Shown here in pieces: positions 2 to 39,969 of a stretch of 64,000 bases of DNA. The notes beneath the pieces were generated by a model, which was given only the letters and a program-made list of their open reading frames with translations, made no database searches and was not told the DNA's origin. Source of the stretch: a virus. The DNA is taken from positions 74,672 through 138,671 of IMG/VR virus record IMGVR_UViG_3300044797_000318; one strand, 5' to 3'. Numbering within the stretch: position 1 is the first letter of the stretch; each line of letters begins with the position of its first letter. The position numbers and the translations under genes are program-made.

Positions 2-466
2 CGACCCCAAGATTTTAGAAAAGAAAACATTAACATTGATGGTAAACACTGGCATACAGATTATAATGTAAGGTTATTAGATAAAAAAGTTTATGCTAAT
101 GATCACGATGATTTTCATTTAATGGTTATTTCGTGGGGCGCCGGTTGTTCTACGGAGTTTATTGAAACACCCATGGACCTTCCTAATAATTTAGAATTGA
201 AAGATTCTAAAGAGAAATGGGAATTGTGGGATAGTGCACTTTCTAAAAAATTAGGAGAACCACATAAAGTAATTAAAGCTCAGAAGAATCAAATGGCTGA
301 ATATACTGCTAGAGATTTACACAGAGCCGATGGTATCGTGCACTCTCACGGATTACGATTAATGATTGTGGCGTTTGATTGCGATAGTATTGATGGTAAT
401 GTTCGAATTTTGCCCAGTATTAGAGATATAGATAACGGAATCCCAACGCCAATTTATTCAAGGTAA
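2..466 (+). CDS. Probable 2OG-Fe(II) dioxygenase-like protein, 5' truncated by window edge
   Basis: Frame is open from base 2 (RPQDFRKENINIDGKHWHTDY...), so it extends the listed 122 ORF; HxD (WHTD), distal His (DLHRA) and a downstream Arg (GLRLMIV). Confidence 0.55.
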   Translation, partial: RPQDFRKENINIDGKHWHTDYNVRLLDKKVYANDHDDFHLMVISWGAGCSTEFIETPMDLPNNLELKDSKEKWELWDSALSKKLGEPHKVIKAQKNQMAEYTARDLHRADGIVHSHGLRLMIVAFDCDSIDGNVRILPSIRDIDNGIPTPIYSR

Positions 467-33200: not shown

Positions 33201-33433
33201 TTTGGGTAATGCCGGCTTTCTCCCCGGCTTTGGTACACTTTTCCACAGGTGCAAAAGGGTTCTTGCGAACCGTCTGGGGCTGGGCGTGAGGAGTTCCTAC
33301 GGAACCGCTCTGGTGTCAATTCACCTCGTCAAAGGAGGTATTCTTCCTCCTACCACAGCTCTACTAACGAATCGGCTAGCTCACTTTTAGATTATTGCTA
33401 ACCTCAGCTAAATTAGTAGAGGGATTACCCAAA
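33201..33433 (-). ncRNA. Unidentified ~233-nt highly structured RNA
   Basis: 10-bp terminal helix (UUUGGGUAAU/AUUACCCAAA), 9-bp CUCUACUAA/UUAGUAGAG, two GCAA tetraloop hairpins, several more hairpins; G-U pairs favour the minus strand. Confidence 0.7.
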
Positions 33434-33579
33434 TCTTATTCTTCATTTGCTATAAAAACAAAAATAGCTTCTTATCAAAATAAGAAGCGTGCGATGGTGA
33501 TACATCCAACAATAATGGTGTCTAACCAAATAACAAGGCCTAAGGCGGCAAGAAAGTCTTTCATCTTTATCTTCCTGTA

Positions 33580-33654
33580 TGGTATCCCCAACTGGAATCG
33601 AACCAGTACTGTTTGTTTCGAAGACAAACGTGATATCCGTTTCACTATGGAGAC
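33580..33654 (-). tRNA. tRNA-Arg(UCG)
   Basis: Cloverleaf GTCTCCA/TGGGGAT, anticodon loop CTTCGAA, TTCGATT, encoded CCA. Confidence 0.93.
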
Positions 33655-33665
33655 ATATACTTACT

Positions 33666-33750
33666 TGGTGCGCCTGGTAGGAGTCGAACCTACTATGGGT
33701 TTCCCCGCTTGTTTCGTAGACAAGGGCCTTATCCGTTAGACTACAGGCGC
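33666..33750 (-). tRNA. tRNA-Arg(ACG) with long variable arm
   Basis: GCGCCTG/CAGGCGC, loop CTACGAA, variable arm GGG-GAAA-CCC, CCA. Confidence 0.9.
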
Positions 33751-33761
33751 ATTTTCTTACT

Positions 33762-33840
33762 TGGTATTCCCGGTCCGATTCGAACGGACATCGATCCAAT
33801 TACGGTGCTCAGAGGTAGAAGCTCTGTCCGATACGGGAAC
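33762..33840 (-). tRNA. Atypical tRNA-Arg(UCU) lacking a canonical D-arm
   Basis: GTTCCCG/CGGGAAT acceptor, CAGAG-CTTCTAC-CTCTG, perfect T-arm, CCA; only 7 nt at the D-arm position. Confidence 0.8.
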
Positions 33841-33849
33841 ATACTTACT

Positions 33850-33924
33850 TGGTGATCCTAATGAGGGTCGAACTCATTCCTGAACCTTGAGAGGGTTCCG
33901 ACCTAGCCGGTAGTCGATAGGACC
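33850..33924 (-). tRNA. tRNA-Glu(CUC)
   Basis: GGTCCTA/TAGGATC, loop CTCTCAA, CCA. Confidence 0.93.
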
Positions 33925-33969
33925 ATCGTGTATATTATATCACGATATTAGTTGATCTAAAATCAATTA

Positions 33970-35217: not shown

Positions 35218-35291
35218 TGGTGACCCGTAACGGTTACGATCCGATGTTCAAGAGTTGAAAACACTTTGTCCTACCATTAGACGAACGGGCC
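35218..35291 (-). tRNA. tRNA-Glu(UUC), atypical T-loop
   Basis: GGCCCGT/ACGGGTC, loop TTTTCAA, T-loop ATCGTAA, CCA. Confidence 0.85.
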
Positions 35292-36839: not shown

Positions 36840-36916
36840 TGGTGCGCGAGATGGGAGTCGAACCCACAAAACTTATTTTTTGAGAATAATACGTATGCCT
36901 ATTCCGTCACCCGCGC
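36840..36916 (-). tRNA. tRNA-Leu(CAA) with short variable loop
   Basis: GCGCGGG/CTCGCGC, loop CTCAAAA, 5-nt variable region, CCA. Confidence 0.9.
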
Positions 36917-39207: not shown

Positions 39208-39697
39208 CTAAACACGAAACGAAGAACCGTCAAGGCGGGGGTCAACAAAAATAATTTCACGACCCACATTTTTGGCGTATTCCACGCAGTTAGCTGTGCC
39301 GCCTTTCGATCCATCCCATACGGCAATCAATTTATCGCAATGGTCAACCATCCACTCATTACGAATTTGCATTTTATAAGCAGCATAACCGCCATCACTA
39401 ACAATAACTTCTTCGGAGGCTAGCTTGCGTAAAAGCCGATATGTTTTTTGACTGACCTCGGGCCACGCCATCTCTTGCCCCTCAAAAGGAATGCAAGCTA
39501 CTAATGGAATACGAAGTTTGAGGCAAACACTGGCAAAATATTGATCGGTACCTAAGGCCATACCCGACAAACATTTTTCGGGTTTCATTTCCAATAATAG
39601 CCTCTCAATTTCTCGGCAAATTTTATTATAGGTTGGATTAGGTAATTTGTATCCACCGATTTTTTGTCGGCCTGGATCCCGTGATTGCTATTATCAT
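39208..39697 (-). pseudogene. YspA/DUF1273 SLOG-family protein with a +1 frameshift in an A6 run
   Basis: MIIAITGSRPTK then IGGYKLPN in another frame...SGMALGTDQ...RNEWMVD...AVWDGSKGGT. Confidence 0.75.
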
Positions 39698-39969
39698 TTT
39701 TGTATGGTTACTTGTTCGTGTGCTTGCATCTCTTCCGCCTCAATCAATTGCATAAACTCATCGTGAATTTCTTGCGACTCGTTGTTGCGCTGAATGTAAA
39801 ACAGACCTACCGATTGCTCGCCTAACAAACCCAAGAACTCATACTTGACTTTGACCTTGCCAACAATAATGGTGTTGATAGCGGAGGCGAAACTAGCCAT
39901 TTCATCTTCACTTTGGAAGAGGTGAGCGGCTGGTAGATTGACTAATATTTCCTTGGGTTTGATTTTCAT
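39694..39969 (-). CDS. Hypothetical protein
   Basis: Likely start MKIKPKE after a GGAGG SD. Confidence 0.6.
   Translation of the reverse strand: MKIKPKEILVNLPAAHLFQSEDEMASFASAINTIIVGKVKVKYEFLGLLGEQSVGLFYIQRNNESQEIHDEFMQLIEAEEMQAHEQVTIQK

Follow-up and report, generated by a model that had tools for sequence, protein, structure and literature searches.

We describe here a transfer RNA (tRNA) gene of rearranged layout, found on the minus strand at positions 33840-33762 of a 64,000-nucleotide (nt) stretch of DNA (the window) that spans positions 74,672 to 138,671 of the IMG/VR virus record IMGVR_UViG_3300044797_000318. Judging from its sequence and from those of its relatives, the gene very probably specifies a functional phage elongator tRNA-Arg(UCU) that would read AGA with an internally permuted core, as a member of a widespread family. 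The family itself is real, widespread and overlooked by annotation. The gene is 79 nt long, i.e. 76 nt followed by an encoded CCA, and its RNA reads GUUCCCG UAU CGG A CAGAG CUUCUAC CUCUG AGCA CCG UAAUUGGAUCGAU GUCCG UUCGAAU CGGAC CGGGAAU A CCA. A first-pass annotation, made from the letters of the window, had proposed a tRNA-Arg(UCU)-type gene with its D-loop string 3′ of the anticodon arm; the sequence and segmentation that it gave match exactly the reverse complement of 33762-33840, and this layout is confirmed from the sequence. Its description of the D arm as missing held in part: no D hairpin precedes the anticodon arm, but a D stem is re-formed by the two strands that flank this arm and pair in a covarying helix (helix P). 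The structural idea was essentially right, and it is sharpened here to an internal permutation with a re-formed D stem.

Only 7 nt separate the acceptor stem from the anticodon stem, and the D-loop-like string sits 3′ of the anticodon arm, where the DNA between this arm and the T arm is AGCACCGTAATTGGATCGAT. All of the following parts are on the minus strand. The 5′ strand of the acceptor stem, GUUCCCG (RNA nt 1-7; 33834..33840), pairs with 33766-33772 in a stem that is closed by a G1-U75 wobble and whose seven pairs all covary in the family. It is followed by the linker UAU (RNA nt 8-10; 33831..33833), which we would read in canonical numbering as U8, A9 and the equivalent of U22, the first D-stem-like layer; U8 and A9 are invariant in 25/25 and 65/65 aligned relatives. 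The 5′ strand of helix P, CGG (RNA nt 11-13; 33828..33830), apparently equivalent to D-stem strand 23-25, pairs with 33803-33805 and is separated from the anticodon stem by a lone A (33827) that would occupy position 26. The anticodon arm CAGAG/CUUCUAC/CUCUG (33810..33826) has a 5-bp stem in which all five pairs covary and a 7-nt loop with the UCU anticodon at 33817-33819, and its U33 and A37 are invariant in 65/65 relatives. Downstream come the linker AGCA (33806..33809), a probable equivalent of variable-loop positions 44-47 with a G at its second place that is at least 90% conserved, and the 3′ strand of helix P, CCG (RNA nt 36-38; 33803..33805), which would correspond to D-stem strand 10-12. 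The relocated D-loop-like segment UAAUUGGAUCGAU (RNA nt 39-51; 33790..33802) may be read as U13, A14, A15, U16, U17, G18, G19, A20, three further nt, A21 and U48. The T arm GUCCG/UUCGAAU/CGGAC (33773..33789) is canonical, with a 5-bp stem and a 7-nt UUCRANY-type loop; four of its five pairs covary and the fifth is an invariant G-C. The acceptor 3′ strand CGGGAAU, the discriminator A and the encoded CCA (33762..33772), read from the sequence, complete the gene. In Escherichia coli, arginyl-tRNA synthetase (ArgRS) recognises C35, an A20-type D-loop base and A or G at position 73, and the candidate carries corresponding features in its UCU anticodon (C35), its discriminator A and the GGA of the relocated loop (A after G19).

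Three pattern scans of IMG/VR yielded relatives of the candidate. The first, in which the anticodon loop was fixed together with just nine bases of the D-like string, returned 43 stretches, of which three had the same layout with different stems and the others were chance-like. In the second, the sole scan in which the anticodon was left free, ten bases of the D-like string and five T-loop bases were fixed; it returned 107 stretches, 31 with a full-length member and one with the 3′ part only. The third pattern lay on the 5′ half, with the CGG strand fixed, and a member was present in 55 of its 58 stretches. Combined, the scans gave 96 matches representing 64 distinct sequences on uncultured phage contigs. 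The first-pass annotation had argued from the intact remaining stems that the gene is not decaying, and this conserved family of 64 distinct relatives bears it out. The candidate follows the family order: acceptor strand, UAY, 3-bp helix P strand, 1 nt, anticodon arm, 4-8 nt, second helix P strand, a 12-14-nt loop containing GG, T arm and acceptor strand.

The four helices are maintained by compensatory changes. When 25 members were aligned with MAFFT, 96.8% of cells paired versus 60.2% in shuffles, 19 of the 20 pairs had changed on both sides, and shifting the partners by 1-3 columns left only 32-46% pairing; RNAalifold independently predicts the identical four helices. An alignment of 65 sequences without the window copy gave 98.4% of cells paired. 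Helix P, in which the three bases 5′ of the anticodon arm pair with the three bases 3′ of it and so enclose the arm, is paired in 97.9% of cells of this alignment, and all three of its pairs covary. Among the 25 members it occurs as CGG/CCG (12), CUC/GAG (3), CAG/CUG (3), CAC/GUG (2) and CCC/GGG (2), the remaining three being imperfect. Across the 64 distinct sequences, 433 cells changed on both sides versus 114.5 in shuffles, a count made on an alignment (A3) that was itself fitted to the model. The search for homologues and for covariation of CGG with CCG that the annotation had proposed as a check has thus found relatives with the same arrangement and a covarying helix P. The columns equated with 15 and 48 are AU in 61 sequences, GC in three, GU in one and unpaired in none (n=65), as a Levitt pair would be; the G-C cases probably reflect few events. 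Little or no variation is seen at U8, at A9, at the bases resembling A14 and A21, at the GG and at the T-loop bases, and this holds too for columns that the search patterns had left free.

Two other pairings were tried and rejected. The annotation had offered ATCGG/TCGAT beside CGG/CCG; only the latter stood, with 3/3 pairs covarying, whereas ATCGG/TCGAT pairs in 73.4% of cells (65 sequences), its middle pair is broken in 44/60, and its 5′ strand changes without any matching change in the partner. The local hairpin CCG(UAAU)UGG of the minimum free energy (MFE) fold, with UGG at 33796-33798, pairs in 79% of cells with no pair changed on both sides; it breaks upon change in its 5′ strand, though it is favoured by single-sequence thermodynamics.

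We infer from these data that the gene order is 1-9, 22-47, 10-21, 48-76 in canonical numbering, which amounts to a circular permutation of the internal module 10-47 with all canonical segments kept in 76 nt. RNA nt 1-7 (GUUCCCG) would be acceptor-stem positions 1-7, nt 8-9 (UA) U8 and A9, nt 10-13 (UCGG) the D-stem strand 22-25, nt 14 (A) position 26, nt 15-31 the anticodon arm 27-43, nt 32-35 (AGCA) positions 44-47, and nt 36-39 (CCGU) the D-stem strand 10-13. Likewise, nt 40-50 (AAUUGGAUCGA) would be the D loop from A14 to A21 with G18, G19 and A20, nt 51 (U) position 48, nt 52-68 the T arm 49-65, nt 69-75 (CGGGAAU) the acceptor positions 66-72 and nt 76 (A) the discriminator 73. Three observations fit this permutation: the string TAATTGGAT is the D loop of a canonical tRNA-Arg(UCU) that adjoins a family member in locus L089, the core bases are conserved, and the 15/48 columns are Levitt-like. 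The canonical L-shape brings position 9 up to 22-23, 45 up to 10-25 and 21 beside 48. Therefore all three new junctions would join spatial neighbours, as a viable permutation needs.

The resulting molecule would be a three-way junction of the acceptor stem, a long arm in which an internal loop separates the 3-bp D-stem-like helix from the 5-bp anticodon stem, and the T arm, the long arm being connected with the T arm by the 13-nt D-loop-like single strand UAAUUGGAUCGAU. The D-stem-like helix may stack on the anticodon stem as in a normal tRNA, while the relocated G18-G19 would dock on the T loop and A15 would pair with U48, giving the usual L-shape. RNase P, ArgRS (via A20, C35 and U36), EF-Tu and the ribosome would then accept the rearranged molecule. 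The layout could have arisen if the 10-47 module was duplicated in tandem and its outer parts were then lost, which is the classic route to circular permutation.

Standard tools do not see this architecture. ARAGORN reported nine tRNAs in the window, the candidate not among them, and found no gene in the excised stretch in any of four modes, the mitochondrial one included. The Rfam tRNA model RF00005 gave seven matches in the window, none at the candidate, and on a 501-nt stretch it gave no match at 33765-33840 even at E up to 10. It scored relatives at 27.6-44.1 bits (cut-off 29), while the best canonical tRNA in the five records concerned reached 65-75. Two covariance models of the rearranged family (R1 and R2) were used; R2, a leave-one-out model made from 65 relatives without the window copy, recovered this copy with 86.9 bits (E 6.5e-24) as a full-length match to positions 1-76, and its next-best match within the 64-kb window scored 25.2 bits. 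The candidate is also the single strong family copy in the whole record.

The anticodons and the genomic company of these genes point to decoding. All 64 distinct members have Arg anticodons (UCU 58, CCU 2, UCG 2, ACG 1 and GCG 1). We compared rearranged genes with the other Arg tRNAs of the same record in 13 records holding 17 rearranged Arg genes, for which complete tRNA sets or all RF00005-positive regions were available. In 11 of these records, 15 of the 17 genes supply an anticodon that has no canonical counterpart in the same record. The phage described here, with canonical Arg tRNAs CCU, UCG and ACG, has the rearranged UCU; the fragment G001, with canonical UCG, has rearranged UCU, CCU and ACG; G002 (79% complete), with canonical CCU, UCU and CCG, has rearranged GCG and UCG; and G006, which is complete with terminal repeats and 40-odd tRNAs, has canonical CCG and CCU beside rearranged UCU and ACG. 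Salmonella phage Felix O1 combines a canonical ACG with the rearranged UCU. The rearranged UCU gene stands without any canonical Arg tRNA in G005 (84% complete), Limnohabitans phage DC31, Stenotrophomonas phage SOVA965, Salmonella phage SSBI34 and E. coli phage phi92, and Agrobacterium phage Atu_ph04 has no other tRNA at all. The remaining two records carry the rearranged UCU beside canonical UCU x2 and UCG (G003, a fragment) or UCG and UCU (G007, complete). In the phage described here, AGA is used more than any other Arg codon, making up 338 of the 1194 counted in 86 open reading frames (ORFs) of at least 180 codons, and the 14 canonical tRNAs that ARAGORN finds in the whole record include Arg(CCU), Arg(UCG) and Arg(ACG) and no canonical Arg(UCU).

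Phage rV5, a member of the subfamily that also includes SSBI34, encodes tRNA-Arg(UCU) in the canonical form and lacks a rearranged copy; Arg-AGA is among the tRNAs given for it in its published description (PMC3606486). Compared with SSBI34, this makes the canonical and rearranged forms look interchangeable. The phi92 copy has an encoded CCA and, just upstream, a promoter-like TTGACA and TATAGT separated by 17 nt. The architecture is also not strictly tied to ArgRS, since the rearranged layout occurs with a GAU (Ile) anticodon as well, at L219:688-764 (-), L228:282-358 (+) and L234:282-358 (+), on the G001 contig and two further phage contigs. This form has its own relocated loop, UAGCUGGUUGCAY; three of the 11 matches to its pattern are real, and the L228 copy differs from the other two by compensatory stem changes. 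A strict structural scanner run over the 397 kb of collected DNA, a small search space, found no isotype beyond Arg, and a relaxed version added one Ile(GAU) with no match in shuffles.

The family extends well into cultured phages. A blastn search with the SSBI34 copy matched 249 cultured-phage records, with 80% or more of the 82-nt query covered in 242. Felixounavirus (Felix O1 and others), Justusliebigvirus (phi92 and others), Vequintavirinae, Klebsiella phages, coliphages of about 355 kb and several BASEL phages are among them. Felix O1, phi92 and SSBI34 are the model-confirmed cases within the 242, the others being placed by BLAST coverage. Counting all sources, seven cultured-phage copies were confirmed with R1 or R2, namely those of Atu_ph04, DC31, SOVA965, Felix O1, phi92, SSBI34 and Alishewanella phage Slicko01. 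The hosts of member-carrying phages include Alpha-, Beta- and Gammaproteobacteria. A blastn search of cultured phages with 701 nt around the candidate matched only the neighbouring tRNA-Glu, in four records, the cultured relatives having been retrieved solely via queries with other family members. Among the matches listed, most are unannotated and the others are labelled "tRNA-OTHER", "tRNA-Undet" or "tRNA", or are overlapped by a called coding sequence; in Alishewanella phages the rearranged gene is labelled "tRNA-Ser". One family member has been published as a tRNA whose "anticodon is undetermined" (PMC6630229), and we found no description of a permuted phage tRNA layout in the literature covered, i.e. 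open-access articles and bioRxiv. As a separate observation, the INPHARED records MG065639, MG065645, MG065656 and MG065689 ("Campylobacter phage", about 146 kb) and OK283618 ("Listeria phage LPML1", 87 kb) contain the enterobacterial version of the rearranged tRNA; these five have phi92-like or Felix O1-like sizes, and their host labels may be wrong.

Several observations weigh against a functional, permuted decoder of this kind. The sequencing runs listed for the stretch include no RNA run. Taken as a single sequence under nearest-neighbour energies, the candidate's proposed fold has -21.0 kcal/mol, 1.2 above the MFE of -22.2; helix P has a pair probability of about 0.15 versus about 0.7 for the competing CCG/UGG hairpin, and the fold z-score is -0.58, with 55 of 200 shuffles folding equally well. 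The 25 sequences of the first alignment were picked by an acceptor and T-stem pairing filter and by eye, which is a selection bias, and members from the third scan contribute nothing to the covariation of helix P, its CGG strand having been fixed. The L-shape and the canonical numbering draw on general knowledge of tRNA crystal structures. The presence of a canonical tRNA-Arg(UCU) in G003 and G007 means that the rearranged gene is not always the sole decoder. Moreover, a decayed copy in which the 3′ strand of the T stem is deleted (L080:263-333 and L184:295-365, the same contig) is followed after about 30 nt by an intact canonical tRNA-Arg(UCU); the arrangement looks like a replacement in progress, and the rearranged gene can therefore be dispensable. 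Finally, in relatives of this phage from three soil runs, 33666-33849, i.e. tRNA-Arg(ACG) together with the candidate, is replaced by other DNA. These soil relatives are about 90-95% similar and keep the flanking tRNAs, the replacement measuring 388 nt in one contig, and tRNA cassette composition varies between strains.

Resistance to anticodon nucleases and a decoy role, both suggested in the first-pass annotation, found no support in this analysis and are speculative. The filling of anticodon slots in 11 of 13 records argues for an ordinary decoding role rather than for a decoy. We accordingly think it unlikely that the gene encodes a tRNA mimic acting outside translation, whether as a decoy, sponge or inhibitor of a host tRNA-directed defence nuclease or of a tRNA-modifying or surveillance enzyme, or as a substrate by which such an enzyme is drawn away from the genuine tRNA-Arg. 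Some of the evidence does suit a mimic. Searched in 185,579 species, each represented by one genome, the commonest family motif had two matches, both on contigs of metagenome-assembled genomes that carry tRNA genes, and 5,426 complete E. coli genomes gave 0 matches to the family, so that by these searches it appears nearly absent from cellular genomes and essentially phage-restricted; two phages retain the rearranged gene beside a canonical tRNA-Arg(UCU), and the Arg-only anticodons of members with the Arg-type pattern would fit a target-specific decoy. However, 15 of the 17 rearranged Arg genes fill a missing anticodon, even in the 40-odd tRNAs of G006, and their anticodons are spread over the Arg boxes (UCU, CCU, UCG, ACG, GCG) as those of decoders would be, while a rearranged tRNA-Ile(GAU) exists besides. 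The acceptor stem, discriminator, CCA, U33 and A37 are all retained, and no linked gene of defence or counter-defence was seen in the window, where 17 neighbouring ORFs were searched with Pfam.

We hold it to be improbable that the transcript is repaired to a normal cloverleaf by cutting and rejoining, in the manner of circularly permuted or split tRNA genes or of tRNA introns. Repaired permuted and split tRNA genes do occur in algae and archaea, and the two thirds of this genome that lie outside the record could encode an RNA ligase, but the acceptor strands are already at the ends of the gene, its spacing and CCA match those of the neighbouring normal tRNAs, and the canonical order would require two cuts and two ligations within the molecule. 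The gene is also present in small phages of 46-86 kb (SOVA965, DC31 and Felix O1), and the covarying helix P is possible in the unrepaired order only. Still less probable is a non-functional remnant, a tRNA-Arg gene scrambled by local rearrangement and now drifting. Rejection by the standard tRNA finders and one visibly decayed relative would agree with this; against it, 64 distinct sequences keep the four helices through compensatory changes (433 versus 114.5 in shuffles), the loop motifs are invariant, and phages of Alpha-, Beta- and Gammaproteobacteria hosts carry the gene. An assembly or chimera artefact, for which the source being an uncultured and incomplete contig might be cited and which the first-pass annotation had named as a way in which its proposal could fail, has a negligible chance of being right, as an independent peat-metagenome run (X2) holds a 445-nt contig that spans 33424-33868 with 0 differences, making local misassembly unlikely, and the same layout is found in the isolates Felix O1 and phi92.

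The permuted tRNA-Arg shares much with the canonical form represented by RF00005 and by the genes of L089 and rV5: a 7-bp acceptor stem, a discriminator A or G, CCA, a length of 76 nt, a 5-bp anticodon stem with a 7-nt loop containing U33 and A37, a UUCGA T loop and the TAATTGGAT D-loop string, together with a place in a tRNA array and the filling of an Arg anticodon slot. The differences are that nt 9 and 26 have no D hairpin between them, that the anticodon arm is flanked by the D-stem strands, that the D loop comes before the T arm, and that the junction is three-way rather than four-way. A short connector between acceptor and anticodon stems and a non-cloverleaf shape are also known from the D-armless tRNAs of metazoan mitochondria, such as tRNA-Ser(AGY) and the "minimal" tRNAs of nematodes and mites. 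Those tRNAs are shortened, with the D loop gone and in most cases the conserved elbow contacts as well, whereas the candidate keeps a G18G19-type loop, a consensus T loop and 76 nt, and it belongs to a bacterial virus and not to an organelle. The circularly permuted tRNA genes of Cyanidioschyzon merolae and Thermofilum pendens and the split tRNAs of archaea resemble it in their non-canonical segment order and plausible duplication-deletion origin. In circularly permuted genes, however, the 3′ half is encoded ahead of the 5′ half and a normal tRNA is regained by processing, while the candidate has normal acceptor termini and an internal permutation that circularisation cannot reverse. Class II tRNAs (Leu, Ser and Tyr) likewise have a long segment between the anticodon stem and the T stem, which measures 20 nt here; in the candidate this segment has no covarying hairpin of its own and partly pairs across the anticodon arm, and the anticodons of the family are Arg, or Ile in one offshoot. 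An engineered D-armless tRNA, "mini HisT", is used by evolved E. coli and shows that the bacterial synthetase, EF-Tu and ribosome are able to work with a tRNA that has no canonical D arm (Edelmann et al. 2024, PMC11551756); the same article states that all known bacterial tRNAs are cloverleaves. Mini HisT is synthetic, wholly without a D arm and in need of a host pnp mutation; the phage family is natural, occurs in wild phages and has its D elements relocated.

In the window, the candidate is the second of four minus-strand tRNA genes and is in register with its neighbours. It is preceded by a canonical tRNA-Glu(CUC) (33850..33924) and directly followed by a canonical tRNA-Arg(ACG) (33666-33750) and, as the last gene of the array, a canonical tRNA-Arg(UCG) (33580-33654), all three called by ARAGORN and Rfam. 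ACCA followed by an AGTAAG spacer (AGUAAG in RNA) is common to tRNA-Glu(CUC), the candidate and tRNA-Arg(ACG), and tRNA-Arg(UCG) ends in ACCA only. On the same strand, a promoter-like site (TTTAGA, 16 nt, TATAAT with TG; 33934..33961) precedes the first tRNA of the array by about 9 nt, a consensus match of a kind found twice versus 1.8 expected. A terminator-like hairpin with a T run (33467..33488), one of three such sites versus 0.6 expected in shuffles, follows the unit of four tRNAs. Pfam searches of 17 neighbouring ORFs gave no family for the processing or repair of tRNA and none with a known link to defence. The source record (138,671 bp, 39% G+C, CheckV completeness 32%) is probably a fragment of a very large phage, and no ArgRS gene (PF00750) was found in it, the record covering only about a third of the genome.

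Other tRNA genes of this phage are unusual in their own ways. The tRNA-Arg(ACG) at 33666-33750 (-) is 82 nt plus CCA, and its 14-nt variable region CGGGGAAACCCAUA could form a short stem; arginine tRNAs do not usually have a class II-like arm of this kind. At 35221-35291 (-), Rfam reports a tRNA (44.9 bits) that ARAGORN misses, with an anticodon loop that by eye gives UUC (Glu) and a T loop, UCGUAAC, that deviates from the consensus. The tRNA-Leu(CAA) at 36840-36916 (-) is just 77 nt and has no long variable arm, in which it differs from three adjoining Leu tRNAs. ARAGORN also calls a 79-nt tRNA-Lys(UUU) at 39627-39705 (+), with its anticodon at position 36 and without confirmation by Rfam, on the strand that carries none of the region's other tRNAs; this could be a miscall or a further odd tRNA. 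Amber-suppressor-type tRNAs with a CUA anticodon are found outside the window in the record of this phage (G000:C1:61584-61658), in G006 (L238:6114-6188) and in G001 (L254:241-317), and a crude ORF-length test of this record gave no clear gain for TAG read-through.

Insertions were seen in and beside some family members. Members of 89 nt occur at L236:2586-2674 (-) and at positions 245-333 (-) of both L167 and L190, and the L236 copy, whose anticodon is ACG, has a small GCAA-tetraloop hairpin within the relocated D-like segment. HNH homing-endonuclease genes directly adjoin the members of SOVA965, SSBI34 and Felix O1 (at L160:1957-2493, L244:1597-1956 and L248:2551-2943), and in L083 (minus strand, 3′ part at 286-332) an HNH-like ORF takes the place of the whole 5′ half of the tRNA. 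This could mark the rearranged gene as a hot spot for homing or insertion, or as an intron carrier.

As to why phages should carry such genes, one tentative answer goes beyond the decoding role itself. From Felix O1 and phi92 to huge soil phages, the family could consist of translationally active non-cloverleaf tRNAs, for Arg and occasionally Ile, whose permuted core hides them from something that acts on the canonical D-arm/variable-loop face of the host tRNA-Arg, while RNase P, ArgRS, EF-Tu and the ribosome still accept them. We put this forward as possible rather than likely; what is evaded might be a host defence directed at tRNAs, or else a depletion of host tRNA that the phage itself brings about. 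If it were true, the cloverleaf would be no requirement of bacterial translation, and phage tRNA repertoires would have been systematically under-counted.

To our knowledge, the cloverleaf is treated as universal outside animal mitochondria. The genes described here form a conserved, covarying non-cloverleaf tRNA family in the tRNA operons of hundreds of sequenced phages, including Felix O1, phi92 and phages of E. coli K-12. If they are charged and decode, the bacterial translation apparatus would tolerate a permuted tRNA core in nature, the family would offer a natural scaffold for orthogonal-tRNA engineering, and tRNA finders would need a new model. The reason why phages keep the permuted form would then become a directly testable question.

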